Shown here piece after piece: positions 43,410 through 62,464 of a DNA stretch of 64,000 nucleotides. How positions within the stretch are numbered: the stretch's first letter is position 1; each line of letters begins with the position of its first letter. Position numbers and translations under genes: made by a program. This DNA is from a virus (lineage: Duplodnaviria > Caudoviricetes): the IMG/VR virus record IMGVR_UViG_2974531088_000001, positions 6,708 to 70,707 of that record; one strand, given 5' to 3'. The notes below the pieces were generated by a model. The model made no database searches. It was given only the letters and a program-made list of their open reading frames with translations, and was not told the DNA's origin.

Positions 43410-43589
43410 ATGGCAGATAACCAGCATCCCGACATTCCGAAAGTCTCACCCCTCGTGGCGGACGCCATGGCCCTTGGTGAGGTCTTGCAAGCGTTCGTTG
43501 AAGCCGGGTGGAACAAAGACGACGCAATAAAGTACATGGCCATTCAATCCGCAACCAGGGGGGTGCAACGTGAACAGCTTGGACTTTGA
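43410..43589 (+). CDS. 59-aa protein ending in EQLGL
   Basis: Leaderless start; …FVEAGWNKDDAI…. Confidence 0.65.
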   Translation: MADNQHPDIPKVSPLVADAMALGEVLQAFVEAGWNKDDAIKYMAIQSATRGVQREQLGL

Positions 43590-45595: not shown

Positions 45596-45642
45596 CCTTG
45601 TGTTAATGTGGTCCTACTCCTTTCGAGTTGTGGGGCTGCTGA

Positions 45643-45683
45643 GAAAGCCCCCCGGTGACGCCAAGTAACCGGGGGGCTTTTTT
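45643..45683. terminator. Intrinsic terminator
   Basis: GAAAGCCCCCCGGT…ACCGGGGGGCTTTTTT. Confidence 0.88.
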
Positions 45684-45693
45684 CATGCCCCCA

Positions 45694-45753
45694 TGTAAAG
45701 AATCGGGCCGTTTTCTTACACGTCCCGGCAACTTGTAAAGCTTCCTTACACGT
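45694..45753. repeat. Two TGTAAAG…CTTACACGT units
   Basis: Direct repeats, each an imperfect palindrome. Confidence 0.65.
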
Positions 45754-45806: not shown

Positions 45807-46616
45807 ATGACCACTACACCGATGATTGAGAGCTTCCGGGCACTCATTGAAGCCAACGGGCACACCCTCCCTGCTGAACTCAAAAGCGCTGAACTGTTCG
45901 CCGGGTACGGCGGCTTAGCCCAAGCCATTGAACGGGGCTTTGGAGCTCGCAGCGTGTGGCTTAGCGAGTTCGACCCGGCACCCTCCAAAATCCTTGCCCA
46001 CCACTTCCCGGGGATCCCCAATCTGGGGGACGTGACCAAAATTGATTGGGACGCAATCGCCGCGGACCCGCTCATGCGCCCCCACATCATGGGCGGCGGG
46101 TTCCCCTGCCAGGACGTGAGCCTTGCCGGTCTGCGCAAGGGGCTGACCTCAAGCACCCGGTCAGGTCTGTGGTTCCACTTCCTCAAAGGCATAGTGGCCC
46201 TGCAGCCCGAGTTCGTGCTATTCGAGAACGTCCGGGGCATCCTTTCCGCCAAGTCAGTCAGGGACATGGAAAGCACCCCCGAATCGTTGGCCCTAGACGC
46301 CGAAATTGAAGAACTGACCACCCGCCGCGAAATCCTCCACACAGAATTGGACCACCTCTATGACTCCGCTGCCCACGCTGAATTCAACGCCCTTGAGGAC
46401 CGAATTTCTGGCCTCCTGGAACAGCGAGACGGGATTGTGGGAGACGGGGCAAGCGGACCTGTTCAGCGAGCACTTGGAACCGTTCTCGGAGACTTGGCCG
46501 ATGCAGGGTATGACGCGCAATGGGCTGGCCTACGCGCTGCCGACGTGGGCGCCCCCCATGGGCGTTTCCGCGTCTTCGGCCTTGGAATCCGGCGCGACCT
46601 CCTCAACGCTGCTTAA
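45807..46616 (+). CDS. DNA cytosine-C5 methyltransferase, N-terminal (catalytic) subunit
   Basis: Motif I ELFAGYGG, IV GGFPCQ, VI ENV, VIII HGRFRVF; motifs IX-X absent. Confidence 0.9.
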   Translation: MTTTPMIESFRALIEANGHTLPAELKSAELFAGYGGLAQAIERGFGARSVWLSEFDPAPSKILAHHFPGIPNLGDVTKIDWDAIAADPLMRPHIMGGGFPCQDVSLAGLRKGLTSSTRSGLWFHFLKGIVALQPEFVLFENVRGILSAKSVRDMESTPESLALDAEIEELTTRREILHTELDHLYDSAAHAEFNALEDRISGLLEQRDGIVGDGASGPVQRALGTVLGDLADAGYDAQWAGLRAADVGAPHGRFRVFGLGIRRDLLNAA

Positions 46617-47847
46617 GACACCCACCAGCCAACTGGCGGTGAATGGTGGCAGTCAGCACCCGGACAAGCGCAAAGCCGGGGGCCATGGCCCGACGCTGGC
46701 GGACGAAATCGAACACACCTTGCCGCCCATCGACGCCGTGCCCGAAAGCTCGCTGCTCATGACGCCGGTAGCCATTGAGGGCACCAAGCCAAGCAACGTG
46801 ATGGGCGTCAACCGCCGCCTTTCAACAGGGCAAGTGTTCCTGACCAACCAGATTGTGACCCTCATGGGGCTGGACCCCTCAGAACATGAGGACGCCAAGC
46901 TGCTGCCGACGCCCACGACGCAGGAAACCAAGTCCGGGCCGTCCCAGGCGAACCGCAACACGCCCCCGCTCAATCAGGTGGTCACGGACTTGCTGCCCAC
47001 CCCCATTGCTTCTGACGGGAAGGGCACCGGACCAGCGGACGCCCACCGGGCCACCGTCCAGCTACGCGCCATTGGTGAGCTCTTGCCCACCCCCATGTGT
47101 GGAGACGCCAAGCAAGCCCGGAACAGCACCGCCAACCGCAACAAGATTCCACCTACCGGCATTCACGCCGGGGACACCCTCACGGACGTGTTCGTGCCCA
47201 ACGGGAATACCCCCATCCTGCCCACACCCAAGGGCAGCGACGGCGAGAAGGGCGGACCCAACCAGCGCGGCTCAAGCGGGGACTACGCACTACCCGCCAT
47301 TGGCCACCTGTTGCCCACCCCGGCAGCCAACGACAGCGGCAACACCCCGGAAGAACACCTACGCAAAAAGCCCGGGCGCACGCAGGTAACCAGCTTGCAG
47401 GTCATAGCTGACCATGGCCTCATTGAGACGGGCGGCAAGATTCTGCCGACGCCTACCGTGGGCAATGCAACGGGCGGGAATGCGCAGCGAGGCGGCGACC
47501 GTTCGGACGAAAAGCTTTTGCCCGGACTGGCCGTCGAAATGACCGAGAAAGACCCGCGCGAGGTCAACTGGGGTGCCTACGCCCCGGCCATTCGCCGCTG
47601 GGAACGTATCAGTGGCCGCATGGCACCGCCCCCGACGATCCCCACCGGGCGCGACGGCGCGCAACGACTCAACCCGGCCTTTGTGGAATGGATGATGGGA
47701 CTAGAGGCGGGGCACGTCACTGACGTGGATATTCCCCGGTCAGCCATGCTCAAAGCCCTGGGCAACGGCGTATGCCCCCAGCAAGCTGAGGTAGCCATTC
47801 ACCACCTGTTGGGCATGTTCGTGCGAGCTTACGGACTGGCAGCATGA
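46360..47847 (+). CDS. C5 methyltransferase second subunit (variable region repeats plus motifs IX-X)
   Basis: C-terminal RLNPAFVEWMMGL…LKALGNGV; eight LLPTP-like repeats; overlaps the first subunit by 257 bp. Confidence 0.8.
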   Translation: MTPLPTLNSTPLRTEFLASWNSETGLWETGQADLFSEHLEPFSETWPMQGMTRNGLAYALPTWAPPMGVSASSALESGATSSTLLKTPTSQLAVNGGSQHPDKRKAGGHGPTLADEIEHTLPPIDAVPESSLLMTPVAIEGTKPSNVMGVNRRLSTGQVFLTNQIVTLMGLDPSEHEDAKLLPTPTTQETKSGPSQANRNTPPLNQVVTDLLPTPIASDGKGTGPADAHRATVQLRAIGELLPTPMCGDAKQARNSTANRNKIPPTGIHAGDTLTDVFVPNGNTPILPTPKGSDGEKGGPNQRGSSGDYALPAIGHLLPTPAANDSGNTPEEHLRKKPGRTQVTSLQVIADHGLIETGGKILPTPTVGNATGGNAQRGGDRSDEKLLPGLAVEMTEKDPREVNWGAYAPAIRRWERISGRMAPPPTIPTGRDGAQRLNPAFVEWMMGLEAGHVTDVDIPRSAMLKALGNGVCPQQAEVAIHHLLGMFVRAYGLAA

Positions 47848-48131
47848 AGGCTAAGCGCGAGCCACGCACGTTCGATTTCCGGGAAACCTACTGGGGCCAC
47901 AATTTCGGCGTGTCCGGCGTCCCGACCAAACGGAACCCGGGCAAATGGAAGCGGGGCAAGTTCACGGGCTGGACGATTTCCACGCCGCGACCGCAGCCCG
48001 GTGACCTCATGATTTGGGCGACCAAGCTAGGCCACATCGTCGCCAAAATCACCCATGTGGACCCCTACCGCGACCCCGACGACATGGCCAAAATCAAGGG
48101 CAAGATCGTGGAGCGAGTCAGGAAAGAGTAA
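47844..48131 (+). CDS. Hypothetical protein
   Basis: ATGA overlap. Confidence 0.65.
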   Translation: MKAKREPRTFDFRETYWGHNFGVSGVPTKRNPGKWKRGKFTGWTISTPRPQPGDLMIWATKLGHIVAKITHVDPYRDPDDMAKIKGKIVERVRKE

Positions 48132-48133
48132 GG

Positions 48134-48164
48134 GAAAGCCCCCGTCAGATTGGCGGGGGCTTTT
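48134..48164 (+). terminator. Intrinsic terminator
   Basis: GAAAGCCCCCGTCA-gat-TGGCGGGGGCTTTT. Confidence 0.85.
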
Positions 48165-48173
48165 CGCTGCCGC

Positions 48174-48200
48174 AAAAACAGGCACACCCGCTGACAGAAT
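48174..48200 (+). promoter_or_regulatory. Middle-type promoter, leaderless
   Basis: AAAAACAGGCAC-N9-CAGAAT-N6-ATG. Confidence 0.8.
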
Positions 48201-48206
48201 GAACTC

Positions 48207-49784
48207 ATGACCAATGACACCCCCATATTCCCGCTGTCCGATGCCGAGATTCAGGAAGCCTACGCGCCCGAACTCCACTACCAGGACAGCCATGTGACCT
48301 TGTGGCATGGCGATTGCGTGGACGTTCTCAAGACCCTGCCGGACAACAGCGTCGACGCCGTCGTCACAGACCCGCCCTACGGTATCCGCTTCATGGGCAA
48401 GGCATGGGACGGCGAGGACATAGAGGAAATGACCCGCAAGCGCCGCGAGTCCAAGCCCATGCCTGACGGTGCCGGTGGCCCCAACGGCGGGTATCAGTCC
48501 GCCAGCACTGAGGCCGGACGCTACAACCAGACCCTCACAGCGAACCAGGCATTTGGGGAATGGTGCCTCGAGTGGACGCGCGAGTGCTTCCGTGTCCTCA
48601 AACCGGGTGGCCACATTCTCGCGTTCGGCGGTTCCAGGACATGGCACCGGCTCGCGTCCGCCGTTGAAGATGCTGGCTTTGAAATCCGGGACTCAATCGC
48701 ATGGCTCTACGGTTCCGGGTTCCCAAAATCCATGGACATTTCCAAGGCAATCGACAAAATGCGCCACGAGTCAGCGGACAAGCTCAAAGTCACCTCGTGG
48801 CTGGCTGACCAAGCCGACGCTAACAACATCACCCGGCGCATGCTGGACATTGCCATGGGAACCAGCGACATGGGCGGCTGGTGGCTGTCCCGCCTGGAAC
48901 ACCGCTGCCAAGTGCCCACCATGGAGCAAATCCCCCGCGTGCTGGCCACCCTTGGGGTTGAGGCTGAGGACGTGCCGGCCGACATTCAGGAACTCATTTT
49001 TGAGCTCAACGGCGCCAAGGGCACCCCGGGCAAGGCATGGCTTGAGCGCGAGGTAATCGGCACACGCGAAACAGGCGACGCGCTGGGCTGGCTGCAATCC
49101 ACTGGCAGCATTACCAAGACCGTGGACGTGACCACCGCAGCGTCCGACGCAGCCAAGCAATGGGAGGGCTGGGGCACCACGTTGAAGCCGTCCTTTGAAC
49201 CCGTCGTCGTGGGACGCAAGCCCATGCGCCTGACCACAGCGGCCAACGTCCTCAAGCACGGCACCGGGGGCATGAACATTGCCGCCACCAGGGTGGGCGA
49301 CGAACTGCGCACCAACAGCGCTGGCGGGGTGTCCAGTCTTCACGCCGTCAGCCGGGTGGAACAGGGCTACCGCGAGAACGTCAGCGAATGCGAGGGCGAG
49401 GCATCCAGCGTGAACGGGCGCTGGCCCACCAACGTGCTGCTGGACGATTTCACCGCGGAACTGCTGGACGCCCAAGAACGCGACGCGTCCCAGTTCTTCC
49501 CCATCTTCCGCTATGAAGCCAAAGCCCCCGCGTCCGAACGGCCCAACGTGGACGGCACCATGCACCCCACCGTCAAACCCCTGGACCTCATGCGCTGGCT
49601 TATCAAGCTGGTCACGCCCCCGGGCGGCACCGTCCTGGAACCCTTCGCCGGGTCCGGCACGACCGCTGAGGCATGCGTCATGGAGAACATGCACTGCATA
49701 GCCATTGAGCGCGAGGCCGACTATCTGCCCCTGATCCGGCACCGCCTTGAAAAGCCCATTGAGGTGGCCCTTTTCAACGTCTGA
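48207..49784 (+). CDS. DNA amino-methyltransferase (N6A/N4C, beta class) with internal insertion
   Basis: DPPY near the N-terminus; HPTVKP…VLEPFAGSGTT near the C-terminus. Confidence 0.92.
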   Translation: MTNDTPIFPLSDAEIQEAYAPELHYQDSHVTLWHGDCVDVLKTLPDNSVDAVVTDPPYGIRFMGKAWDGEDIEEMTRKRRESKPMPDGAGGPNGGYQSASTEAGRYNQTLTANQAFGEWCLEWTRECFRVLKPGGHILAFGGSRTWHRLASAVEDAGFEIRDSIAWLYGSGFPKSMDISKAIDKMRHESADKLKVTSWLADQADANNITRRMLDIAMGTSDMGGWWLSRLEHRCQVPTMEQIPRVLATLGVEAEDVPADIQELIFELNGAKGTPGKAWLEREVIGTRETGDALGWLQSTGSITKTVDVTTAASDAAKQWEGWGTTLKPSFEPVVVGRKPMRLTTAANVLKHGTGGMNIAATRVGDELRTNSAGGVSSLHAVSRVEQGYRENVSECEGEASSVNGRWPTNVLLDDFTAELLDAQERDASQFFPIFRYEAKAPASERPNVDGTMHPTVKPLDLMRWLIKLVTPPGGTVLEPFAGSGTTAEACVMENMHCIAIEREADYLPLIRHRLEKPIEVALFNV

Positions 49785-49810
49785 GAAACAGGCACGCACG
49801 CACTTACGCT
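49785..49810 (+). promoter_or_regulatory. Middle-type promoter
   Basis: GAAACAGGCAC-N9-TACGCT, then a GCCACAACGAAAGG leader. Confidence 0.75.
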
Positions 49811-49841
49811 GGAACTATCAGCCACAACGAAAGGGCCAACC

Positions 49842-50411
49842 ATGGCATTGCAAGAGACATACACGGACGGGGCTGCTGCCCCGGAATGGGTGAAAGAGGG
49901 CGGCACCGTCGCCGTCTGCCAGCGCACCCGTTGGGGTGCCGGTCACAGCGTCAACAAAGGCTATGTGGAGCGCATGACCAAGACCCAAGTCATTTTGAAT
50001 GACGGGCAGCGGTTCAGCCTCAAGAACGGCTTACGGGCTGTAGGGGACTCCAAACGCGACCCCTACGGACCCGGGCCGTTGTTCCTGGCTGACTGGGAAT
50101 CCAACGAGGTCAAGTCAGCTCTACGGGAACAATTCCTGCGGAACGCCGCCACGCAGATTGCCCACCAAGCGCGCGCGTTCGAGAAAGAACCCACCGGGCA
50201 GAAAGCCCACGAACTCATGGGGCTGCTGGCCCAATGGCTGCGCAAGGACGGCACCGTGGTGGAGTGGGGCACCAACTACGGGGCGGACGGGCGCATATAC
50301 CCGGCACCAAACGAGGCCGACGCCCGACTCAAGGCCAAACTAGACGGCGTGGACCTCTACATGCGCGCGCCCGGGGTGCTGGCTGGTAACTGGGTCATGG
50401 TGGCCGAATGA
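49842..50411 (+). CDS. Hypothetical protein
   Basis: Leader motif plus RBS. Confidence 0.7.
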   Translation: MALQETYTDGAAAPEWVKEGGTVAVCQRTRWGAGHSVNKGYVERMTKTQVILNDGQRFSLKNGLRAVGDSKRDPYGPGPLFLADWESNEVKSALREQFLRNAATQIAHQARAFEKEPTGQKAHELMGLLAQWLRKDGTVVEWGTNYGADGRIYPAPNEADARLKAKLDGVDLYMRAPGVLAGNWVMVAE

Positions 50412-50845
50412 GCTTGCACCTGTTCAAGGCCATTGAGGAACTGGCGAGCCGTTGCGAGGCTGCCGGACTCGTTGACGCTGCCGAGGTGGGCGCCGAGCTC
50501 CGCGCGATCCTGGAACGCTACCCGCTGCCCCCGGAAGACGCAGACGAACGCGACTCAACGCACTGGCTGTTCCAGCGCCACAGTGAAACCCTCACCCGGG
50601 TGGCCAACGCCGTCAACGGCCCACCCAAGCCGCTGTGGAGTCATTCCCACCATGACCTTGGTGAGAAAGCCGAGGAACTGGCAGCCAAGCACGCCGCCGC
50701 CCTCAACCCATCCCCGGCCCTGTTGGACGCCGTGGCCGAAAGCGTGATGCTTGATTTCAACATTCCAAGCATGCGCTTTGCACGCCAAGAGGTCCGGGCC
50801 ACCCTCAAGCACCTTGAGAACGGGCTGGCCAATGGCCTCCGGTAG
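50408..50845 (+). CDS. Hypothetical protein
   Basis: ATGA overlap. Confidence 0.65.
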   Translation: MSLHLFKAIEELASRCEAAGLVDAAEVGAELRAILERYPLPPEDADERDSTHWLFQRHSETLTRVANAVNGPPKPLWSHSHHDLGEKAEELAAKHAAALNPSPALLDAVAESVMLDFNIPSMRFARQEVRATLKHLENGLANGLR

Positions 50846-51197
50846 TCGCCACAAGACCGTGGAGGACTCCCGGGAATGCCTCCACTGTGGGCAGACCCGG
50901 GGGCAAGTCCGGGCCGAACGGACATATTGCGCCACAGTGTCAGTGGGCGAGACGGTGGAAGCCCTGGACGAATGGGACACCCACCGTTGGGCGGACTGGA
51001 AAGACGCCGAAATCCCCAACTTCATCAAACCGGAAGCCAAAAAGAACTACCGGCGCACCCGCGTTGACGACTTCCAGTGGGCTGCCTGTGACGACACCAC
51101 CACCGGCCACAAGTACCCGGTCACCGATGAAGACAAGTCATTTTTCCAAGCCGGCCAATGCATCTTTTGCGGAATAGAGGAACCCACCAATGCGTGA
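50832..51197 (+). CDS. Cys-rich hypothetical protein
   Basis: CLHC…CIFC. Confidence 0.65.
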   Translation: MASGSRHKTVEDSRECLHCGQTRGQVRAERTYCATVSVGETVEALDEWDTHRWADWKDAEIPNFIKPEAKKNYRRTRVDDFQWAACDDTTTGHKYPVTDEDKSFFQAGQCIFCGIEEPTNA

Positions 51198-51615
51198 CGA
51201 TCACCAGGTAAAGGCCACGCTTTCGTTCACCTTTGAGGAACTGGACGAAAACGGCACCGTGGTGCGCCGGTCCACTGAAAAGCACGGCGTAAGCCACACC
51301 ATGACCACCACCAACATGGTGCGTACCCGCTTTCCCGACATGGAAGCGCAATGGGTGGCGCGGAAGTTCGGCCAAAGCGTCGCTGACCTCTTGGGCAACG
51401 TCCTGCCCCCGTTCCTGGACGGCAAGACCGGGCAAGCGTTCTGCCCCTCCACCATCCACAAGGGCAAAGAGATTCCCGCGCCCATTCCCGGGATGTTCAT
51501 CAACTATCTGACCCCCGGCGTGGAAACCCGGGTTTCGTACTGCCTGGAGTGCGCCGAAATGGGCGAGTTCACGGGCATGTTCAGGCCAGATAAGGACGCA
51601 GCTAATGGCAACTGA
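51190..51615 (+). CDS. Hypothetical protein
   Basis: GAGGAA RBS. Confidence 0.65.
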   Translation: MRDDHQVKATLSFTFEELDENGTVVRRSTEKHGVSHTMTTTNMVRTRFPDMEAQWVARKFGQSVADLLGNVLPPFLDGKTGQAFCPSTIHKGKEIPAPIPGMFINYLTPGVETRVSYCLECAEMGEFTGMFRPDKDAANGN

Positions 51616-51895
51616 GGTCTACACCCCGGAACCCGTCCAGGGGCACACCATGCACCCCGATATTGAGATTGACCAGGACGGCGTAACGTGGCTGTTCATC
51701 GAATCCCAGTTCGGAAGCTTCAAGGCGAATCACGCGACATTGACGGCGCCGCCGTTCTCCACCATTGCTGACCCCATCACCCGGAACATGGGCTTTGACC
51801 CGGGCCATATCAGCGCGGACAGCATCCTTTACGCCCACGCCGCTGCAAGCGTCCTACGGGACAAGCCGGGGCCGTTCACGGGCAACGTGCTGTGA
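51605..51895 (+). CDS. Hypothetical protein
   Basis: AAGGA RBS. Confidence 0.6.
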   Translation: MATEVYTPEPVQGHTMHPDIEIDQDGVTWLFIESQFGSFKANHATLTAPPFSTIADPITRNMGFDPGHISADSILYAHAAASVLRDKPGPFTGNVL

Positions 51896-51994
51896 TTCCC
51901 AAGCCCACGCCGCTGCGCTGGCCTAACCCCTACACAGACCCCCGGGGCATCTACCTAGTGACCCGGATTATCGAACGAAAGAGAGAAAAAGAGA

Positions 51995-52228
51995 ATGAGC
52001 GAGTACAGCCCCAGAATCGGTGACGTTGTGGAATACACGACCCTTGACGGCATCCAAGTGCCGGCCATGATTACCGCCGTCGTCAACAGCGCCAACGCCG
52101 TTGACCTGGATATTCGTTACCCCAAGACCGTGGCCGAGGATCCCATCCCGGAAGGCCACAACCCTGACCTTATTTGCTATTTGCCGTCCGACGAACCAAA
52201 GCCCGGGCGCTGGCAGGTCCGTAAGTAA
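51995..52228 (+). CDS. SH3-like small protein (PRIGDVVEY…PAMITAV…GRW)
   Basis: Purine-rich RBS. Confidence 0.7.
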   Translation: MSEYSPRIGDVVEYTTLDGIQVPAMITAVVNSANAVDLDIRYPKTVAEDPIPEGHNPDLICYLPSDEPKPGRWQVRK

Positions 52229-52254
52229 AAAACAGGCACGGCGCTGCATAGGCT
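52228..52254 (+). promoter_or_regulatory. Middle-type promoter
   Basis: AAAAACAGGCAC-N9-TAGGCT-N7-ATG. Confidence 0.8.
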
Positions 52255-52261
52255 GGGAGGT

Positions 52262-52636
52262 ATGAGCCACAATTACCCCCCAGCGCTGACCGCTTTGGCG
52301 GAAAAGATCATGACAGCGCAACACACCTGGACAAACGAGGCCGAACTGCAAGCCTCAATAGACGCCGCACTCAAGACCGCTGGATACAGCCCCACCCGCG
52401 AGGTGGCATTATCCAGCGGTCTTGGGCGTGTCGACCTTATGGTCGGCAAGGTGGGCATTGAGGTGAAGATTGCCGGGTCATGGCAGCAACTCACCCGGCA
52501 GGTCATGCGGTACACCCACGCCCCCGAAATCGGGGCGGTGCTGGTGGTCACCACCAAGGCAGCGCACGCCCGAAATGTGCCCGTCCAGGCGAACGGCAAA
52601 CCAATCCTTACTATCTTCCTGAATGGGGCATTTTGA
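52262..52636 (+). CDS. PD-(D/E)xK nuclease-fold protein
   Basis: E…RVDLMV…IEVK…QVMRY. Confidence 0.75.
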   Translation: MSHNYPPALTALAEKIMTAQHTWTNEAELQASIDAALKTAGYSPTREVALSSGLGRVDLMVGKVGIEVKIAGSWQQLTRQVMRYTHAPEIGAVLVVTTKAAHARNVPVQANGKPILTIFLNGAF

Positions 52637-54378
52637 GCGTCCACCAACTCGAATTGCCGTTGACCGCCCCCCGGACATACGGCTGGTACGAATACACAGA
52701 CCATGGCAAGCGCGGCAAGTGGACCCTACGCATGGAACCCGCCGTCGCTTCCCGCGTGAAGCGCATCTTTGCCCGTGTCCGCTGGACCACAGCTGGAACC
52801 GTGGAAATCTGGGACTCGCTGGACGTAACCCGCGACCTGGAATGGATTCTTGAGCGCTGGCCAATGACCCCAGCCAATCAGGCGACCGCGGAACGGCTCT
52901 ATGGTGGTGCCCGGGCGCACCGACGCCGTGAGGAAACCATTCAGCGCGTCATTTCCGGGGAACGCCGTCTTGAGCTCCCACGCGACCCGGCCAAAGCCCC
53001 GCGTGATTACCAGCTAACCGCCGTGGACCTGTTGCGGCAGACCGGCCGGCTGCTGCTCACTGACTCCCGGGGCTTGGGCAAGACCTACACGGGCTTGCTC
53101 AACGGCACCCATGAGGACGCCCTGCCCATACTCGTGGTGCCCCCGGCGCACTTGCCCGGGCGGTGGATGCTAGAGGCGCACGAGGCGTTCCCGTTCCTAA
53201 GCGTCAAGATAGCCAAGAAAGGCAAACCCCCGGAAAACTGGACTCCCGACGACTTGCCCGACGTCATGATCGTGCCGTATTCCAAGCTGGACGGGTGGGC
53301 TGACTACCTGGCCGGGAACATCAACACCATTGTGTTTGATGAAGTGCAAGACCTCCGAACAGGTAAGGGCACCCGCAAGGGCCACGCCGCTGGCATTCTC
53401 TGCGAGGAAGCCACCTATAGGCTGGGGCTGACCGCCACCCCCATTTACAACTACGGCGGCGAAATCTGGAACATTATGGACATTCTGGCGCCGGGGGAAT
53501 TGGGCACGAGTGACGAATTTACCCGCGAATGGGGTTCGGTCAACTTCAACGGCAAGACCGTGATCAAGGATCCCGCCGCATTGGGCAGCTACTTGCGCGA
53601 GCAAGGTTTGATGCTGGGCCGGACCCGCAAGGACGTGGGCCGTGAGCTTCCGGCCCACGTGACCGTTCCCGTGACCGTGGAGAGCGACCCGGAAGCCCTG
53701 GACAAGGTGAAGGGCGACGCCCGGGCCATGGCTGAACTGATCCTTTCAGCGAACACCACCAGCTTTGACCGCATGAAGGCAGCCGGGGAACTGGACTGGA
53801 AGCTACGCGAGGCCACCGGCATTGCCAAAGCCCCATACGTTGCCGAGTTTGCGCGCCTGTTGCTGGAATCTGAGAACAAAATCTTGCTGTTCGGTTGGCA
53901 CCGCGCCGTTTATGACATTTGGATGGACTTGCTCAACGAGTTCCAGCCGGTCATGTATACGGGCAGCGAGTCCGCCGCGCAAAAGGATGCTGCGGCCGCT
54001 GAGTTCATCAAGGGTGACGCCCGAATCCTGATCATGTCCCTACGTTCCGGCAGCGGCGTGGACGGGCTGCAAGAGGCGTCAAAGGTCTGCGTGTTCGGTG
54101 AACTGGACTGGTCCCCTCAAGTGCACTTGCAGGGCATTGGCCGTCTGGACCGTGACCCCGCAGACCCCGGCGTCGACCTCACCCAAGTGGAACCCACCGT
54201 CGCTTACTACCTGACCACCGAGGACGGCAGCGACCCGGTGATCATGGAAACCCTTGGTATCAAACGCAACCAGTCCGAACCCATGCTGAACCCTGACGGG
54301 AAACTCACCAGCAACGCCACCCCCGATGCAGGGCGCGCCCGTGCCCTTGCCCAACAAATCCTTGGAGTCACCGCATGA
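52633..54378 (+). CDS. SNF2-family helicase/ATPase
   Basis: PRDYQ, Walker A GLGKT, DEVQ, LTATP, GSGVDGLQ, QGIGRLDR. Confidence 0.92.
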   Translation: MSVHQLELPLTAPRTYGWYEYTDHGKRGKWTLRMEPAVASRVKRIFARVRWTTAGTVEIWDSLDVTRDLEWILERWPMTPANQATAERLYGGARAHRRREETIQRVISGERRLELPRDPAKAPRDYQLTAVDLLRQTGRLLLTDSRGLGKTYTGLLNGTHEDALPILVVPPAHLPGRWMLEAHEAFPFLSVKIAKKGKPPENWTPDDLPDVMIVPYSKLDGWADYLAGNINTIVFDEVQDLRTGKGTRKGHAAGILCEEATYRLGLTATPIYNYGGEIWNIMDILAPGELGTSDEFTREWGSVNFNGKTVIKDPAALGSYLREQGLMLGRTRKDVGRELPAHVTVPVTVESDPEALDKVKGDARAMAELILSANTTSFDRMKAAGELDWKLREATGIAKAPYVAEFARLLLESENKILLFGWHRAVYDIWMDLLNEFQPVMYTGSESAAQKDAAAAEFIKGDARILIMSLRSGSGVDGLQEASKVCVFGELDWSPQVHLQGIGRLDRDPADPGVDLTQVEPTVAYYLTTEDGSDPVIMETLGIKRNQSEPMLNPDGKLTSNATPDAGRARALAQQILGVTA

Positions 54379-54620
54379 TCAAGCTCTTTCGCCGCCGCCG
54401 CTACACCGTCCAGGCGTTCCACCCCTCCGACTACGGCCCCTTTGGGCACATGAAGTTCCACCACGCATACCAGGTGAGTGACTACATGACCTTTATTCGC
54501 CGCAGCTACCCGCACACCGAGTTCTTGGTGCGGGACCGCGAAACAGGCAAGGTGGGCCACGACTACCCCGCCAAGAACGGGAACCCTGGCACCCACTGGA
54601 CGGCCAGAATTGGCCGCTGA
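54375..54620 (+). CDS. Hypothetical protein
   Basis: GGAG RBS. Confidence 0.6.
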   Translation: MIKLFRRRRYTVQAFHPSDYGPFGHMKFHHAYQVSDYMTFIRRSYPHTEFLVRDRETGKVGHDYPAKNGNPGTHWTARIGR

Positions 54621-54972
54621 CACATGGCCCCGGGACGCCGCCGGCAACATACGCATGGTGCTGTATGTTGCCGGTCCCATGTCCGGGCTACCGGCCTACA
54701 ACCGCCCCAAATTCAACGAGGTAACCGACGAATTACGGCGCTTTGGGTACTACGTGTTAAATCCGGCACGGCAGCCATTAGGTTTGGAATATAACGACTA
54801 CATGAGGCGCGGCATCAACGACGTTCACAAGTCAGACGGGGTGGCACTACTCCCGGGCTGGGAACAATCGAACGGTGCACGCCTGGAACACCTGATAGCC
54901 AGAAAGCTGGGGCTGGAATGCCGGCCCTATACCGACTGGGAAAACCTTTACGAACAGGAACCGCCACAATGA
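54610..54972 (+). CDS. DUF4406 / nucleoside deoxyribosyltransferase-like protein
   Basis: YVAGPMSGLPAYNRPKF…VLNPA…LLPGWEQSNGARLEH. Confidence 0.85.
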   Translation: MAADTWPRDAAGNIRMVLYVAGPMSGLPAYNRPKFNEVTDELRRFGYYVLNPARQPLGLEYNDYMRRGINDVHKSDGVALLPGWEQSNGARLEHLIARKLGLECRPYTDWENLYEQEPPQ

Positions 54973-55574
54973 GCAACCCCATCAAGGAATACCTGAACTA
55001 CACCAACGACGACGGCACCCGCGCGCTGACCGTCAACCCCCAAGCTGACGGCGGGGTGTTCCTCAAACTGTCCACCGTCCTGCCGAACGGCCAGCAACAG
55101 CTTGGCAGCATCATTGTGACCCACGACGCCGTGCCCCGCGTCCTCTTTGAAATCGCTGGCGGCAACCCCACCGAACAGGACGTGGAGGAAGCCCGGGCAA
55201 TCGCTGAGTCAATCGCGACCGGCGACCAGTCCCTCTTGAACATTGGGGCACTCGCGCGCCGCGTGCTACTGGCCCTCCACTTCAACATTCACGGCATCCC
55301 CCCGCGCGAGGAAGTCCCGGCGCCGGACGCCGAACCGTCGCGCTGCGCTGGCTGCGCTTCCGTGGATGAAGCCTACGCAGACGCCGCCCACGACAGCCAC
55401 GCCACGGAAGCCATGGCCACCATGCAAGACCCGGACTATGACCCCAACGCTGAGGAACTGGCGGACCCGGTGGACGATACCAACTACGTGGCCAAACTCG
55501 CTGCCGAGAACGCGAGCTTGAGGAACAAGCTTGCCGCCATTCAAGCGCTCACCAGCCCCCACGTGAACCTCTGA
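54969..55574 (+). CDS. Hypothetical protein
   Basis: CAGGAA RBS. Confidence 0.65.
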   Translation: MSNPIKEYLNYTNDDGTRALTVNPQADGGVFLKLSTVLPNGQQQLGSIIVTHDAVPRVLFEIAGGNPTEQDVEEARAIAESIATGDQSLLNIGALARRVLLALHFNIHGIPPREEVPAPDAEPSRCAGCASVDEAYADAAHDSHATEAMATMQDPDYDPNAEELADPVDDTNYVAKLAAENASLRNKLAAIQALTSPHVNL

Positions 55575-55578
55575 ACCC

Positions 55579-55869
55579 ATGGCCAACAAAGCTGGAACCC
55601 CACAGCCCAACTCCCGCTGTAATGGCAACTGCACCAACCCGGAATGTGGACGCCCCACCCGCACCAGCGGCAGAGTCACCCCCGAAACCAAAGGCATGCC
55701 CCGCAGCAACAAAGCCGGGGTATGCGCACGCTGCGAATACGCGGGATACACCCCAGACCCCGACGCCATGAGCGACGCCCAACTATTCGAGGGCTTCACA
55801 TGGTCCCCTGAACTCCTGGCCGACGCCGTGGACTACGCCCTCGAGGAAATTCTCTATGATGCTGCATAA
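55579..55869 (+). CDS. Cys-rich hypothetical protein
   Basis: CTNPEC…CARC. Confidence 0.6.
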   Translation: MANKAGTPQPNSRCNGNCTNPECGRPTRTSGRVTPETKGMPRSNKAGVCARCEYAGYTPDPDAMSDAQLFEGFTWSPELLADAVDYALEEILYDAA

Positions 55870-56269
55870 CCCGCCCCTCATAATCGTGGCCCACGTGCCC
55901 ATGGTGGACGCCCTGAACGCAAACAAGGGCGGACACTGGGGCAGCACCAGCCCCAAGGTCAAGGTGTTGCGCGAGCAAGGCGGCTGGCTCATGCGCGAAA
56001 AGCACAAGGGCCGGAACGTCTACTTTGAACGCTGCCACATCAACGTCCGGGTGCTGTTCCCGAACAAGGACCGCAACCGCGACACCATGAACTACTACCC
56101 CACCAGCAAAGCCCACGTAGACGGGTTCATTGACGCCAAGCTAGCGGCGAATGACCATGAGGGCATTGTTATTGGACCCCACCTGTGGCCCACCCGGGAA
56201 CTGTCCGGCATCCCCCGCATAGCCAAGTTCATCTATACGATTCACCACCTGGACAGTACCTATGAGTGA
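55856..56269 (+). CDS. Hypothetical protein
   Basis: GAGGAA RBS. Confidence 0.6.
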   Translation: MMLHNPPLIIVAHVPMVDALNANKGGHWGSTSPKVKVLREQGGWLMREKHKGRNVYFERCHINVRVLFPNKDRNRDTMNYYPTSKAHVDGFIDAKLAANDHEGIVIGPHLWPTRELSGIPRIAKFIYTIHHLDSTYE

Positions 56270-56465
56270 CCACATAGCGGCTATCCGCGCTGACCTTGAC
56301 CACGACCGCATGAAGCTGTTGGCCGAGCTCAACGCGGAAGCCCACACCCCGGCCTATTACCGGCCCCCACGCAACGAACACCCCAGCGTTGGCCAACGCC
56401 GCGCCGAACAACTCCGACACGAAAACGCCGCGTTCTACGCTGCAAGGAAGGCAAAAACCCAATGA
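56262..56465 (+). CDS. Hypothetical protein
   Basis: Operon coupling. Confidence 0.55.
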   Translation: MSDHIAAIRADLDHDRMKLLAELNAEAHTPAYYRPPRNEHPSVGQRRAEQLRHENAAFYAARKAKTQ

Positions 56466-56845
56466 GCATGCACTACAGCCGCCACCAGCGCCGCCGCGAC
56501 CGTCACAAGGGGTTGCTGTTCGGCGTGTTCCTACTTGTGGCCATGGTGCTGGTTGGCGTCGTCGCCGTCACGCAGAACGCCAGCAAACAGGCGCAGCTTT
56601 GCACCGTGTCCGGCAAGCACATGACCAGCGACGTGCAAGACGGGCAGAATATCCGCGTCTACCAGGTGGAAACCACCAACTGTGGCGTGCTGCGCATTGA
56701 AGACAACGCACTGCAGGGCGTCTTCAACAGCGCGGACCTGTTCGCAGCCGTCCAAGAGGGCCAGCGCTACCGCTTCACCACAGTAGGGTGGCGGATCCCG
56801 TTTCTGAGCCAGTTCCCCAGCGTCGTCAAGGTAGAGAGTGCCTAA
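56462..56845 (+). CDS. Membrane-anchored/secreted OB-like protein
   Basis: N-terminal TM, then CTVSGK…YQVETTNCG…D…FNSADLFA…YRFTTVGWRIPFLSQFP. Confidence 0.75.
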   Translation: MSMHYSRHQRRRDRHKGLLFGVFLLVAMVLVGVVAVTQNASKQAQLCTVSGKHMTSDVQDGQNIRVYQVETTNCGVLRIEDNALQGVFNSADLFAAVQEGQRYRFTTVGWRIPFLSQFPSVVKVESA

Positions 56846-57110
56846 GCGGGTGCGCGTCCGCTACTTCAACGCGGACGCGCGCCCGTGGTTCGTCACCCCA
56901 GCCGAACAAGCCTATGCCGACAGCTTCAACACCCCCGTGGTCTGCGTCTGCGTGGATAGCTGCCCGGAAAGCTGGGAAGACAACAAATGCGCGTTCTGCC
57001 GAGAACTCGACATATACGACCCGTGCCCCGTCATTGGCTTTGGCTGTGGCAGCGCATGCGACGACTTGGAACATTGCACCCTGGAACAGCGAAAGGCTGC
57101 CGACTCTTGA
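56838..57110 (+). CDS. Cys-rich protein
   Basis: About ten Cys residues in 90 aa. Confidence 0.55.
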   Translation: MPKRVRVRYFNADARPWFVTPAEQAYADSFNTPVVCVCVDSCPESWEDNKCAFCRELDIYDPCPVIGFGCGSACDDLEHCTLEQRKAADS

Positions 57111-57475
57111 ACTACCGTGACCCCAGCACCCGCAAGAACGCCACAAGGGGACGCCGCGCGCCCGACGCCGCACCCGCACCCCTGGAACCCCGCAACGGGC
57201 GTGGACCCGGCAAGCCCAAGCCCGTGGTCAGGACCACCCAGCCGGCACGCGAAAACCACTGGATGAAAGACCTCTACCTAGCCACCCCCGAACCGCCCCG
57301 CGACCCCGCCACGATCCGGGCAGACCTCATGGAAGCCGAGAAACTGACCCACGACCCTGACGTCGTGCATGAGGAAGGCAGCTGGGGCAGCAACGAATGC
57401 CCCCGCTGCGCAGCCATGGAACCCCTCAGCAACGAACTACTACGCGCCACACTGAGGGGGCCAAATGCGGGGTAA
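57107..57475 (+). CDS. Hypothetical protein
   Basis: TTGA overlap; GAAAGG RBS. Confidence 0.55.
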   Translation: MNYRDPSTRKNATRGRRAPDAAPAPLEPRNGRGPGKPKPVVRTTQPARENHWMKDLYLATPEPPRDPATIRADLMEAEKLTHDPDVVHEEGSWGSNECPRCAAMEPLSNELLRATLRGPNAG

Positions 57476-57977
57476 CAAGCTGCCCCTGGAACAGCGATTT
57501 TGGGCCAAGGTTGCCGTCAAAGAGCCGCGCGAGTGCTGGCCATGGACGGGAAGCATGCACGCGCAAGGCTATGGGAAGCTGGGGGCAGGGAAGCGGGGCA
57601 AGTCATTTTTGGCCCACCGTTTCGCCTATGAGCTCACCAACGGCCCGATTCCTGACGGGCTGCATATAGACCACACATGCCACAACGGCACGGACTGCCC
57701 TGGCGGCAAGACCTGCCAACACCGGAAATGCTGCAACCCGTCCCACCTGGAAGCCGTGGAACCAGTGGAGAATGTGAGCCGGTCCCACAACGCAAACGAA
57801 CACAAGACCCATTGCCCAAAGGGCCACGAGTACACCCCGGAAAACACCTATCGGCAGCCGTCCAAACCGAACGCGCGCCGCTGCCGACGTTGCGCGGCGA
57901 TCTTGGACGCGCAACCCCACCGCACGCGCGCCGGACGGCGCGAGACGAAACGAAAGAGGCAAGAACATGGCCGGTGA
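57465..57977 (+). CDS. HNH homing endonuclease
   Basis: RFWAKV…CWPWTG…GYG…AHRFAYE…IDHTC…[10 protein letters not shown]…EN. Confidence 0.92.
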
Positions 57978-58539
57978 AACCACCATCACGGTGATTGGCA
58001 ATCTGACGACGGACCCCGAGCTTAGATTCGTACCTTCCGGCAGCGCGGTGGCCAACTTCACCATTGCCAGCACCCCGCGCACCTTTGACCGTCAGAGCAA
58101 CGAGTGGAAGGACGGGGAAACCCTCTTTTTGCGTGCGTCTATCTGGCGTGAGGCTGCCGAGAACGTGGCCGAGTCGCTGACCAAGGGCATGCGCGTGATT
58201 GTGTCCGGGCGGCTCAAGTCCCGCAGCTATGACACCAAGGAAGGCGAAAAGCGCACGGTCATTGAGCTTGAGGTGGACGAAATCGGCCCCAGCTTGCGCT
58301 ACGCCCAAGCCAAGGTGAACCGGACGCAGCGCAGCAACAACAACCAGGGTGGCGGGTTCGGCGGCGGTAACGGCGGGTCACAAGGCGGCTTTGGTGGTGG
58401 GGGCGGATATAGTAATCAAGGCGGTTTTGGTGGCGGTGCGAGTAGCGCGCCGGCCAACGCGGACGATCCGTGGGCCACTCCCGGTGTCAGCAATGCTGGC
58501 GGCTGGGGGAATGGCCCCGATTCCGAACCGCCCTTTTAG
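57967..58539 (+). CDS. ssb: Single-stranded DNA-binding protein
   Basis: [15 protein letters not shown]…[20 protein letters not shown]…; Gly-rich tail ending DSEPPF. Confidence 0.97.
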
Positions 58540-58590
58540 CTTCCAGTTGGTCCGGTTAGGTGCGTTTGGGTGTAGTGGAGGTAGTACGCC

Positions 58591-58644
58591 ATGAATCCCC
58601 AAGATGATGTAGACGTTGCCAGCGATCCGGTAGCCAACAGGTGA
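58591..58644 (+). CDS. Possible 17-aa acidic peptide MNPQDDVDVASDPVANR
   Basis: GGAGGT-N8-ATG; lies between ssb and the terminator. Confidence 0.35.
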   Translation: MNPQDDVDVASDPVANR

Positions 58645-58683
58645 AGGCAGAGGACGCAGGGCGTTGCGTTGGAAGCCTGACGG

Positions 58684-58720
58684 GAAAGCCCCCGGCGCAC
58701 GCTCGCGCTGGGGGCTTTTT
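58684..58720. terminator. Intrinsic terminator
   Basis: GAAAGCCCCCGGCGC…GCGCTGGGGGCTTTTT. Confidence 0.88.
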
Positions 58721-58731
58721 CGTGTCTTCAC

Positions 58732-58761
58732 TTGTGCCATTCTGTAGTGGGGTGCTACATT
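58732..58761 (+). promoter_or_regulatory. SigmaA-type promoter with palindromic operator
   Basis: TTGTGC-N18-TACATT; 22 bp identical to the 23013-23034 reverse complement. Confidence 0.8.
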
Positions 58762-58801
58762 TCTTGTATTGCAGTAATCGCCACAGCAAAGGACCAAGAC
58801 C

Positions 58802-59608
58802 ATGCCGACCTACACCACCAGCAACACAGACGTTTACCAGGGTGCGACCATGACCAACGACGAAACCGGGCACTCAGTCAAGGAAGCTGACTATGTGACC
58901 GTGGGCAAGTCCAAAAACGAGTGGTTCGTAAACCGGGTTCTGTGGCATGGGCTTGTGGAGATTGAACGCCAAAAGCCCAAGGGTGGCCTGACCCACCGCC
59001 GTGTGTGCATTGACGACCTCACGGTCACGCTGACCACCCGCACGGACGCCGAATATGAGGAAGTCCCCATGAAGGCCACAGAGGACGCGTGGCCCACCGC
59101 CGCTGACCTTGTGGCACACGCTCAAGCGTTGCTGGATAGCGGCGAGGCTGTGGACCTTGACGACGCGCTAGACGCTGCCGACGATTTGTTCCCGGAAGTT
59201 CCAGACGGCGACGACGAACGCCGCGCGTTCCACCGCCGCGCTGAGGGCATCATGCAGGAAGCGGTCAAGATCATGGAAGCGCGAGCGGTTACAGACACCC
59301 CCACGCCGCTACTCCACCCCAAGCGCGAGGTGTTCGACGTGAAAGCGAGCTTGGACGGCAAGAGGGTAGTGGAGACAATCACCGTGCAGGGTAACATCAA
59401 GCGCGCCCGGTCTGTGGCTGACATGCTCGCATGCAAGCACGGGTTCGGGCCGTTGGTGACCGAATTTCACACCAATTCCCTTGAGTGCCACCAAGGGCGA
59501 GACGGCGGCGTGGTTGAGATTGAGGATATGGACGCGGACTTCCCCGAAACCGGGCCGTGGGATGAAGAAATGACCTACGAACGCAGCGTAATTGACGCCG
59601 ATTACTAG
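58802..59608 (+). CDS. Acidic early protein (monocistronic)
   Basis: Has its own promoter, leader and terminator. Confidence 0.75.
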   Translation: MPTYTTSNTDVYQGATMTNDETGHSVKEADYVTVGKSKNEWFVNRVLWHGLVEIERQKPKGGLTHRRVCIDDLTVTLTTRTDAEYEEVPMKATEDAWPTAADLVAHAQALLDSGEAVDLDDALDAADDLFPEVPDGDDERRAFHRRAEGIMQEAVKIMEARAVTDTPTPLLHPKREVFDVKASLDGKRVVETITVQGNIKRARSVADMLACKHGFGPLVTEFHTNSLECHQGRDGGVVEIEDMDADFPETGPWDEEMTYERSVIDADY

Positions 59609-59626
59609 ACCACCCCAACCCGCAAT

Positions 59627-59651
59627 AGCCACCCCGTGAGGGTGGCTTTTT
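59627..59651 (+). terminator. Intrinsic terminator
   Basis: AGCCACCC-cgtga-GGGTGGCTTTTT. Confidence 0.8.
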
Positions 59652-59663
59652 GCGTACCCCGAC

Positions 59664-59690
59664 AAAAACCGGCACGCACGCAGAGAGAAT
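59664..59690 (+). promoter_or_regulatory. Middle-type promoter, leaderless
   Basis: AAAAACCGGCAC-N9-GAGAAT-N6-ATG. Confidence 0.8.
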
Positions 59691-59696
59691 TAGACC

Positions 59697-59936
59697 ATGG
59701 ACGCTTTCGAGTATCAGACAGTGAAAGTCCCCCGCGACGCCAAGGGACGCAGCAAAGCGCTGACGGCCTACGGTGCGCAGGGGTGGGAAGTCACGGACAC
59801 CAAGGACGCATGGCAAAAGACGGTCACCGTGACCATGCGCCGTGTGGTTCCAGGTGGCGCGAAAATCAAGCCCAAGACCCCGGGACTGTTCGCCCTGATA
59901 TTCGGGGCACTGACCCGCCACAACACCGCTAAGTAA
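59697..59936 (+). CDS. Small protein resembling DUF4177-type domains (FEYQTV…L..YGAQGWEV)
   Basis: Leaderless start. Confidence 0.65.
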   Translation: MDAFEYQTVKVPRDAKGRSKALTAYGAQGWEVTDTKDAWQKTVTVTMRRVVPGGAKIKPKTPGLFALIFGALTRHNTAK

Positions 59937-59948
59937 AGGAACCCAGCT

Positions 59949-61064
59949 TTGAAACTCACCATTGATTCCACCGCGCTGAACGACGCCGTGGCGTTCGCTT
60001 CCCGGGCCGTGAACCCCCGCCATACCGTCGCAACGTTGACGGGTCTTGTCCTGGAAGCTTCCCGGGGGGTGCTGTCCATTAGTGGCTTTGATCAGACCAA
60101 GGCCAATGCTGTGGAAATCGCCGCTGACATTGAGGAAGACGGCAAGGCGCTTTTGCCCGGTGTTGTGCTGGCCAACATGCTCAAGACCCTGCCGAATAAC
60201 AAGCCCTTGGACTTGGAAGTTGGCGACAGGGCCACCCTCAAGGTGGGGCGCGCTAAGTTCTCCACCCCGGTTATGCCCATGAATGACTACCCCACTTTGC
60301 CGGGGCTGCCCCAGCGGCTTGGGTCCGTGGATTCGGACCTTTTCGCCAAGGCCGTGGCTCAAGTCCAGCACGCTGCCGGCCGGAACTCTGACGTGGAGGT
60401 GCTGAACGGCATCTTGGTGGAGCTCCGGGGCGACACTTTGGGGTTCGTGTCCACTGACCGTTACCGCATGGCCGTGGCTGAGGTTCCCATCACCCGCTAT
60501 GAGGGCACGCCGGACGTGGCGGACTTCCTTGTGCTGGCTGAGGTTATCGCCAACGCTGCGAGGGCGAACAGCGGCAACATGGACGTGCTTGGTTCGGAAG
60601 CCCGTATTGGGTTCGTGTCCGCGACCAGGACAAGCACGGCCAACCTCATGGGCGGCAAGTATCCGAACGTCAGGGCACTGTTTCCGGCTGACCACCAGAT
60701 TGCGAACACGGCCACCATTGACGTTGACGCGCTGCTGGGGGCTGTGACTCGCGCCGCCGTCGTCGTGGACGGCAAGAACCCCATTCGCCTGACGTTCCAC
60801 CCGGGTGAGGTCATTGTCGACGCTGGCCGCGCTGACTCCAACGCTGGTGAGGAAGCGGTGGAGTGCTGGCACGACTTCGAGACGGTATCCGCTGCCGGGT
60901 TCAACCCCACCTATTTGGCTGAGGGCTTGCGCTCGCTGACGACACCCCAAGCGCACTTTGGGTTCAACATTGAAACGACGCTCAAGCCGGTCCTGTTGAC
61001 CGAGCCGGGACCGAAGCCCACGGCGCGCCAACTGCTCATGCCAATGCGACTTACCAGCGTCTAG
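59949..61064 (+). CDS. dnaN: DNA polymerase III beta sliding clamp
   Basis: 371 aa; LTGLVLEA…STDRYRMA…GKYPNVRAL…GFNPTYLAEGL…KPVLL…LLMPMRL. Confidence 0.93.
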   Translation: MKLTIDSTALNDAVAFASRAVNPRHTVATLTGLVLEASRGVLSISGFDQTKANAVEIAADIEEDGKALLPGVVLANMLKTLPNNKPLDLEVGDRATLKVGRAKFSTPVMPMNDYPTLPGLPQRLGSVDSDLFAKAVAQVQHAAGRNSDVEVLNGILVELRGDTLGFVSTDRYRMAVAEVPITRYEGTPDVADFLVLAEVIANAARANSGNMDVLGSEARIGFVSATRTSTANLMGGKYPNVRALFPADHQIANTATIDVDALLGAVTRAAVVVDGKNPIRLTFHPGEVIVDAGRADSNAGEEAVECWHDFETVSAAGFNPTYLAEGLRSLTTPQAHFGFNIETTLKPVLLTEPGPKPTARQLLMPMRLTSV

Positions 61065-62083: not shown

Positions 62084-62464
62084 ATGGATTTGTTCACTAT
62101 CTGGTTCCACGTTTTCCCCTGGATTTCCCTTTTCGCGTGCGTGTGCTTGGCGCTCATTGTGGTTTGGATGTGGTTTCCGCGGCCCAACGCCGTGGACGGC
62201 GCACGCAAGGCGGGTTTCCGCGACGGCTACAGCACCGGCCACAAGGACGGCGTGAAAGAGGGCTACAAGGCCGGGGCTGAGGATAAGCACCTCGAGGAAG
62301 GGCACTTTATCAAGTGCCCCGAGTGCGACCATGCGATCCACATTCCCACCATCCTGCATGTGAACGGCGCGCCCGGGGAACAGACCATTGATTGTGAGCC
62401 GGACACCACGGAATTGTGGCTGCACATTGAGGGCCACAAGACAGGGACAGTGGACCATGCCTGA
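62084..62464 (+). CDS. Membrane-anchored protein with Zn ribbon
   Basis: N-terminal TM; CPECDH. Confidence 0.65.
   Translation: MDLFTIWFHVFPWISLFACVCLALIVVWMWFPRPNAVDGARKAGFRDGYSTGHKDGVKEGYKAGAEDKHLEEGHFIKCPECDHAIHIPTILHVNGAPGEQTIDCEPDTTELWLHIEGHKTGTVDHA

Follow-up and report, generated by a model that had tools for sequence, protein, structure and literature searches.

Terminal peptides of an amino-methylase and an SNF2 helicase as candidate beta-clamp ligands in a Klausavirus-type Arthrobacter phage

The beta clamp is a ring-shaped dimer that is put on DNA by a clamp loader. Among clamp-recruited enzymes of eukaryotes, ZRANB3 and related SNF2 fork remodellers are brought in by PCNA through PIP and APIM motifs; we know of no SNF2 client of the bacterial clamp. 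In this study, we analysed a dnaN gene and several candidate clamp-binding peptides, most of them in DNA methyltransferases and an SNF2-family helicase, in a 64,000-nt stretch of viral DNA (hereafter, the window), which comprises bases 6708-70707 of the complete 70.7-kb virus record IMGVR_UViG_2974531088_000001. Described clients of the bacterial clamp that carry the motifs QL[SD]LF and QLxLx[LF] are Pol II, Pol III alpha and delta, Pol IV, Pol V, MutS/MutL and Hda. These ligands alternate between pentapeptides and hexapeptides, the latter with an extra residue before the last Phe or Leu; the motif of Hda is located in a disordered N-terminus, and the peptide LQLELDF was picked by phage display (PMC11139829). 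Phage proteins also bind clamps, as illustrated by the clients gp43, gp33 and gp55 of T4 gp45 and by MuC of phage Mu, which uses the host beta clamp (PMC7892883, PMC12867686). Furthermore, DNMT1 and PCNA provide a case of replication-coupled maintenance methylation (cited in PMC9690074).

We propose that the phage uses the host replicase together with a canonical clamp of its own, and that terminal peptides of its amino-methylase and its SNF2 helicase dock in the cleft of the host or phage clamp. We assign this reading a probability of about 0.42. The phage would supply the beta clamp, the amino-methylase's C-terminal tail, a Glu variant, would dock in the hydrophobic cleft of either clamp, and the N-terminal QLELPL of the SNF2 translocase would dock in the same kind of cleft. 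Since clamps remain on newly made DNA, docking would enrich the methylase on nascent, unmodified phage DNA, and it would place the translocase at forks or gaps. We infer binding, and any effects on methylation or restriction escape, from the motifs, their terminal positions, the low model confidence at both ends, the conservation and the intact cleft. The original prediction had been broader, in that the phage clamp was thought to tether two methylases, the helicase and a protein of 59 aa. All five features were located correctly, and the intact clamp, the conserved amino-methylase tail and the helicase tail gained support, whereas two of the peptides (QADLF and EQLGL) and the hub with four clients were not.

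The beta clamp and the replication genes of the phage

Over about 16 kb around the candidate genes, the window was 80-86% identical to Arthrobacter Klausavirus myophages such as PrincessTrina, Conboy and ArV1; by this similarity, its source is a Klausavirus-type Arthrobacter myophage. The beta sliding clamp is encoded by dnaN at 59949..61064 on the plus strand, with a TTG start and a length of 371 aa. The three domains PF00712, PF02767 and PF02768 were all detected above their cut-offs, and the closest solved structure was DnaN of M. tuberculosis (3rb9; E=1e-57, residues 10-351). In an alignment with 82 homologues, the cleft segments TDRYRMA and FNPTYL and the C-terminal LLMPMRL were identical to the family consensus. 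We take the residues that form the peptide-binding cleft of the E. coli clamp to be T172-L177, N320/Y323 and M362-L366. Judged from its domains and this alignment, the clamp is intact and canonical and has no sign of a changed peptide-binding site, which bears out the intact dnaN of the original prediction.

Searches for Pol III alpha and for family A and family B polymerases found none in the complete 70.7-kb genome, while control genomes gave matches. The annotation of the relatives lists RecE/RecT, an initiator, SSB, RusA, a Cas4-type nuclease, an SNF2 helicase, three methylase open reading frames (ORFs) and the beta clamp, and no polymerase. Because the phage has no polymerase, its clamp is an orphan and must cooperate with host enzymes; it most likely serves replication by the host polymerase. 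Clamp-loader genes were not among the annotations of the relatives, and no loader search was made in the window genome. Based on these annotations, clamp loading by the host is therefore assumed. JayCookie, which had been considered as a Klausavirus without dnaN, was rejected as such, since dnaN is present there. As an observation in its own right, DNA polymerases of families A, B and C are all missing from this complete lytic-type myophage, although it carries genes for a beta clamp as well as for SSB, RecET and an initiator.

Terminal peptides of the amino-methylase and the SNF2 helicase

The amino-methylase is a beta-class N6/N4 amino-DNA-methyltransferase of 525 aa (48207..49784, plus strand; PF01555, E=9e-31), in which DPPY comes first and FAGSGTT lies near the C-terminus. 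Its best solved relative was CcrM (6pbd), and the alignment with CcrM ran to the last helix of the fold, after which the tail follows. This tail, KPIEVALFNV, is encoded at 49752..49781 on the plus strand, and its core EVALF at 49761-49775 corresponds to residues 519-523 of 525. All Klausavirus amino-methylases ended in KPIEVALF(N/Q)V except that of KBurrousTX, which ended in KPIAVAMF.

The tail was surveyed in 121 amino-methylases, among them the 120 that ranked best as homologues of the C-terminal region. A tail of the form [QE]xx[LMF]F or [QE]xx[LFM]x[FL] was present in 113 of the 121 proteins, and the motif ended at a median distance of 6 residues from the C-terminus. Most frequent was Qxx[LMF]F (65 proteins), followed by Exx[LFM]x[FL] (26), Qxx[LFM]x[FL] (14) and Exx[LMF]F (8); eight proteins were without a tail motif. 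Gln thus occupied the first position of the motif in 79 proteins. Elsewhere in the same proteins, the tail patterns occurred at a background of ~0.0001-0.0002 per residue, which corresponds to ~0.002-0.005 expected per tail. The commonest tails were KPVQQGLFGLEAGA and KPVQAGLFGLEAGA, and further examples were KPIEVGFDF.., KPMQLGLDFGG.., KPIQISLFGE.. and KPIQPDMFGA... Pentapeptide and hexapeptide variants were both found among the homologues (QQGLF, QISLF, QPDMF and QLGLDF), and distant amino-methylases in the phage loci that we fetched ended in QQALF, QSALF, QMCLDF, QIRFDF, QASLL or QTSLL. According to their source names, the carriers of the tail were mostly chromosomal genes of Mycobacteroides, Gordonia, Rhodococcus and Cellulosimicrobium, or phage genes; the chromosomal copies are probably prophage genes.

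On this comparison, EVALF represents a local form, with Glu in place of Gln, of the tail that runs through the family ([QE]xx[LMF]F / [QE]xx[LFM]x[FL]). The original prediction had ranked it as the weaker peptide, and it now has the best comparative support. In the AlphaFold2 (AF2) model of the amino-methylase, which was of moderate quality with a mean predicted local distance difference test (pLDDT) score of 70, a short low-confidence helix spanned residues 518-523; mean pLDDT was 77 at residues 511-520 and 39 at residues 521-525. Whether the tail carried Gln or Glu did not correlate with the presence of a phage clamp, as phages without a clamp had both forms and Klausaviruses had Glu or Ala. 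We consider the chances even that the Gln-type tails of the family are clamp-docking peptides, and somewhat worse than even for the Glu form in the window. A broader proposal is similarly tentative: a large family of beta-class amino-methylases from actinobacterial phages and apparent prophages may be tethered to the clamp by its C-terminal motif, giving replication-coupled methylation, to which the Klausaviruses would add an orphan clamp and a docking SNF2 translocase.

The SNF2-family helicase/translocase is encoded at 52633..54378 on the plus strand (581 aa, TTG start; PF00176, PF04851 and PF00271). Directly upstream lies a gene for a Cas4-family nuclease (52262..52636, plus strand), identified from the ORF list, its sequence and the annotation of orthologues. 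The two genes share 4 nt (TTGA), in which the nuclease stop codon and the helicase start codon overlap, and this suggests that they are translationally coupled. The AF2 model of the helicase had a mean pLDDT of 89.5, with a mean of 51 for residues 1-10 and a folded domain from about residue 16; the low values of the tail are partly due to the small number of alignment rows that cover it. Foldseek matched the model to ordinary SNF2 motors (CHD1, Mot1, ISW1, CSB and the Sulfolobus SWI2/SNF2 core), with a top E-value of ~1e-21.

The peptide QLELPL (52645..52662, plus strand) forms residues 5-10 of the 581 and lies in this low-confidence N-terminal tail, which is probably flexible. Across the Klausaviruses and one metagenomic relative (L020), the codons for QLELP showed synonymous changes only (CAA/CAG, CTC/CTT/CTG, GAA/GAG, TTG/CTA/CTT and CCG/CCC/CCT, respectively), which shows the peptide to be translated and under constraint. 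A helicase start at the codon of Leu-10, which would leave QLELP untranslated, was rejected because this codon is TTG, GTT, CTA, GCC, GTA or GAC in the relatives; upstream TTG, GTG or ATG starts overlap the nuclease stop codon there. In a sister clade, with helicases 64% identical overall, QKPI[DN]F was found equally far from a conserved RTYG anchor, and this motif retains Gln at position 1, an aliphatic residue at position 4 and Phe at position 6. In total, Gln-1 and Leu/Ile-4 were found in all nine clade members, with L, V, M, A, D or F at position 6.

Most helicase homologues began right at the RTYG anchor (82 loci). The Gln-motif extension was found at seven of the eight clamp-positive loci versus none of the 74 clamp-negative loci, and when 25 related records were searched in full, only those of L020 and L041 contained dnaN. 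In the tree, the Gln-tail helicases formed one clade (support 99) with the helicase P0134 as its sister. The extension of P0134 was degenerate (AALERPT), and there was no dnaN within 10 kb. The original prediction had proposed to check whether the motifs occur together with dnaN across phages. This was seen for the helicase tail, albeit as one gain, whereas the methylase tail and the QADLF module also occurred in phages without a clamp. Its assignment of QLELPL was supported by the N-terminal position, the Hda-like form, the purifying selection and the restriction to a clade whose examined members all come from dnaN phages, and was weakened by the variable sixth position and the single gain. 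Altogether, the helicase tail is tentatively regarded as a clamp-docking peptide, with the odds somewhat against it.

Two observations concern relatives of these proteins. P0134 (L013:10001-11758), which comes closest to the Gln-tail clade among the helicases not in it, lies on a 29-kb contig beside genes for an NAD-dependent ligase and hydrolases, and the contig is probably a provirus. The sister clade includes a 69.7-kb metagenomic phage that carries dnaN (L011:8212-8934, L011:16642-17748) and has the helicase tail QKPIDF; the 240-aa amino-methylase of this phage had PLSLF in the C-terminal tail, 20 residues from the end.

Alternative explanations and the other predicted clients

Several results weigh against docking of the two tails. 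The first position of the methylase motif is Glu in the window and most Klausaviruses and Ala in KBurrousTX rather than Gln, and replacement of Gln by Glu or Ala strongly reduces the binding of QLDLF (PMC11139829). Most carriers of the methylase tail appear without a phage clamp of their own. A phage-supplied clamp is therefore not needed for this tail, and, as far as its distribution indicates, the tail, if it is a clamp motif, is chiefly aimed at the host clamp. Methyltransferases go unmentioned in a 2024 review of the beta clamp (PMC11139829), and our literature search found no interaction of a bacterial or phage methyltransferase with the beta clamp. The helicase tail was less conserved than the remainder of the protein, its sixth position varied between L, V, M, A and D in the Klausaviruses and L020, and the clamp-positive locus L041 lacked it. 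Moreover, because the tail helicases form a single clade, the association with dnaN is confounded: it amounts to one gain, perhaps with one decay, and by this tree is inseparable from common descent.

Chance levels were calculated for the proteome under study, of 78 proteins (17,374 aa). The hexapeptide pattern QL.L.[LF] occurred once versus 0.41 expected (P=0.35, or 0.15 if only the 40 aa next to a terminus are counted), and the combined pattern of the original prediction gave five matches versus 2.4 expected. The pattern Q[LA][SDE]L[FL] occurred twice versus 0.13 expected (P=0.003), although it was composed after the hit was known. Within the first or last 20 residues, [QE]xx[LIMF](x)[FL] was found five times versus 5.3 expected. 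Hence, there was no motif enrichment at the level of the proteome. As the counts were at chance, the case rests on the comparison with relatives.

These counts also bear on the strongest alternative, according to which the peptides bind no clamp, the phage clamp serves replication alone by recruiting or boosting host Pol III, and the peptides resemble clamp motifs by chance or do not serve in docking. Terminal motifs at chance frequency, a hexapeptide pattern with an unremarkable P-value, the absence of Gln from the Klausavirus methylase tail, and a helicase tail that was gained once and varies at position 6 all fit this explanation, and in a phage without a polymerase replication suffices to explain the clamp. 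Chance alone is harder to reconcile with a methylase tail that 113 of 121 homologues have, that extends to distant subfamilies and that switches between the pentapeptide and hexapeptide forms of clamp ligands, and with QLELP codons that change only synonymously. We regard this alternative as serious and, on balance, rather unlikely.

According to a second alternative, the tails are real short linear motifs that have other partners. The methylase tail might then act in autoinhibition, dimerisation or DNA contact or as a degron, and the helicase tail might contact the Cas4-like nuclease or SSB. In its favour, each tail is conserved and falls in a low-confidence part of its model, the start of the helicase gene runs into the nuclease stop codon, and the CcrM chain continues at the equivalent position into a further region, which we take to be a DNA-binding domain. 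Against this explanation, nothing points to any specific other partner, and the pattern, including the optional extra residue before the last Phe or Leu, matches that of described clamp ligands (PMC11139829). We consider other partners distinctly less probable than chance resemblance.

The remaining predicted clients concern a split C5-methyltransferase and the 59-aa protein. The first subunit of the C5-methyltransferase (45807..46616, plus strand; PF00145, E=4e-30) contains motifs I-VIII, including FAGYGG, FPCQ, ENV and the RFRVF region. The second subunit (46360..47847, plus strand) contains repeated LLPTP-type modules and motifs IX-X and is read in the +1 frame, with an overlap of 257 nt with the first. 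QADLF is encoded within this overlap at 46450..46464 on the plus strand, and makes up residues 31-35 of the ORF, whose start codon is the ATG at 46360. Matches of tblastn in the +1 frame of single-chain methylase genes raised the suspicion that QADLF is an out-of-frame artefact of motif VII/VIII. This explanation was rejected. In five phages, the GC content at third codon positions in the overlap was 0.75-0.83 in the +1 frame versus 0.56-0.60 in the frame of the first subunit, more than 60 gene-called homologues started with a QADLF-type N-terminal module, and the single-chain C5 enzymes P0123 and P0126 carried the module in frame after motif VIII. By these measures, the QADLF frame is translated and the overlap is dual-coding. 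Coding potential in both frames of methylase overlaps is known for Corndog gp6/gp7 (PMC4351075). The arrangement also resembles that of split C5-methyltransferases of the M.AquI type, with motifs I-VIII and IX-X on two ORFs; both comparisons concern the location of QADLF only and have no link to the clamp.

The module had the consensus W-E-T/R-x-E/Q-x-x-[LIM]-[FLC]-[CSG]-[GE]-H, with a spacing of x(3-5), and its commonest form was WERPETNILCGH. The Gln and Phe of QADLF were not conserved across the C5 family, many members having Glu and Cys (or Leu) at these positions, while RitaG, PFR2 and xhp1 had the variants QMDLF, QPDLL and QMDLL. In RitaG, MelBins, PFR2 and xhp1, which are complete genomes without dnaN, the module lay in the +1 frame of methylase genes. 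Hence, although its position had been given correctly, QADLF is, from its distribution, part of a module of the C5-methylase family, and a role in clamp binding is very doubtful.

The single-chain C5 genes of these four phages had an open +1-frame ORF across motif VII/VIII and further (L008:2440-2900, L009:2440-2900, L007:2440-2950, L010:2400-2860; window 46360-46616), which contained the same N-terminal module and complete LLPTP-type recognition modules. In RitaG, the +1-frame module with GNSPEAHLRKKPGR matched in-frame modules of other phages. These ORFs may reflect frame switching or a second product.

In the 59-aa ORF (43410..43589, plus strand), EQLGL forms the last five residues (43572-43586). 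Orthologues in PrincessTrina, KBurrousTX and DrYang had the first ~45 residues in common, but ended in unrelated Cys-x-x-Cys-Gly tails. The peptide was correctly placed by the original prediction and, being absent from all three orthologues, is treated as a chance resemblance. The window copy, which lacks the Cys-x-x-Cys-Gly end, looks truncated or end-replaced.

A 12-nt element, AAACMGGCACGC, starts at positions 35259, 38773, 45776, 48176, 49786, 52230, 59666 (59666..59677) and 62019. All eight copies of this AAACAGGCACGC element are on the plus strand, versus 1.7 expected, and none of 100 shuffles reached eight. Seven copies were located 20-55 nt upstream of a start codon, often at exactly 20 nt. 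The genes that follow are the C5-methylase at 45807, the amino-methylase at 48207, the gene at 49842, the nuclease/helicase pair at 52262, the pair of 59697 and dnaN, and the genes at 62084 and 38804; none of the eight copies lay near the 59-aa gene. From its position, the element could be a promoter or leader element. The middle-promoter class that the original prediction assigned to all five genes was thus recovered as a putative shared upstream element for four of them, and not for the 59-aa gene. Upstream of the C5-methylase, at 45596-45752, a GC-rich hairpin followed by a T run resembles a terminator, and it is followed by two copies of TGTAAAG...CTTACACG, which are dissimilar to the AAACAGGCACGC element.

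A full hub, in which both methylases (by way of QADLF and EVALF), the helicase and the 59-aa protein are all tethered to the phage clamp, is highly improbable despite the correct placement of every motif, the upstream element common to four of the five genes and the similarity of QADLF to QADMF of Pol III alpha (PMC11139829), since EQLGL is missing from the orthologues, most of the C5 family has Glu or another residue and Cys or Leu at the QADLF position, and the module occurs in four complete phage genomes that lack dnaN.

Significance and comparison with known systems

Clamp docking of the amino-methylase and the SNF2 translocase, the reading that we prefer, would have several implications. 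Binding of the methylase tail to the beta clamp, if it occurs, would add methyltransferases to the clients of the bacterial clamp as a new class. Docking would account for the ability of orphan phage methylases to protect fresh DNA quickly enough to outrun host restriction, and the replication-coupled methylation that results would be a bacterial counterpart of DNMT1-PCNA. Similarly, docking of an SNF2 translocase on the clamp would give prokaryotes a parallel to the fork remodellers recruited by PCNA. Genomes in which the family motif is found include apparent Mycobacteroides abscessus prophages and many of the actinophages employed in phage research. If binding fails, consensus-like terminal peptides, even conserved ones, would be insufficient for calling a protein a clamp client.

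The motifs of the bacterial clamp clients begin with Gln and have hydrophobic residues at the fourth and at the fifth or sixth position, a pattern that the candidate peptides resemble. Their placement is also similar, the methylase peptide lying at the C-terminus like those of Pol II and Pol IV, and the helicase peptide in a low-confidence N-terminus that recalls the disordered one of Hda. In contrast to these clients, the putative ligands here are a DNA methyltransferase and an SNF2 translocase, and the methylase of the window has Glu instead of Gln. As in T4 and Mu, phage proteins carry peptides, here putative, for clamp binding, and the clamp would have tasks besides polymerase processivity. 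The T4 and Mu systems serve late transcription, whereas here a bacterial-type clamp is found in a phage without a polymerase, in a group whose annotations include no clamp loader. Like ZRANB3, the helicase is an SNF2-family translocase with a putative clamp-docking peptide; ZRANB3 is eukaryotic, and the sequence relation is limited to the SNF2 core. Finally, the amino-methylase resembles DNMT1 as a methyltransferase with a putative clamp-docking peptide that would preferentially methylate new DNA. DNMT1 uses a PIP box on eukaryotic PCNA for C5 maintenance methylation, whereas the enzyme described here would be an orphan beta-class phage amino-methylase on the beta clamp, with restriction escape as its purpose.

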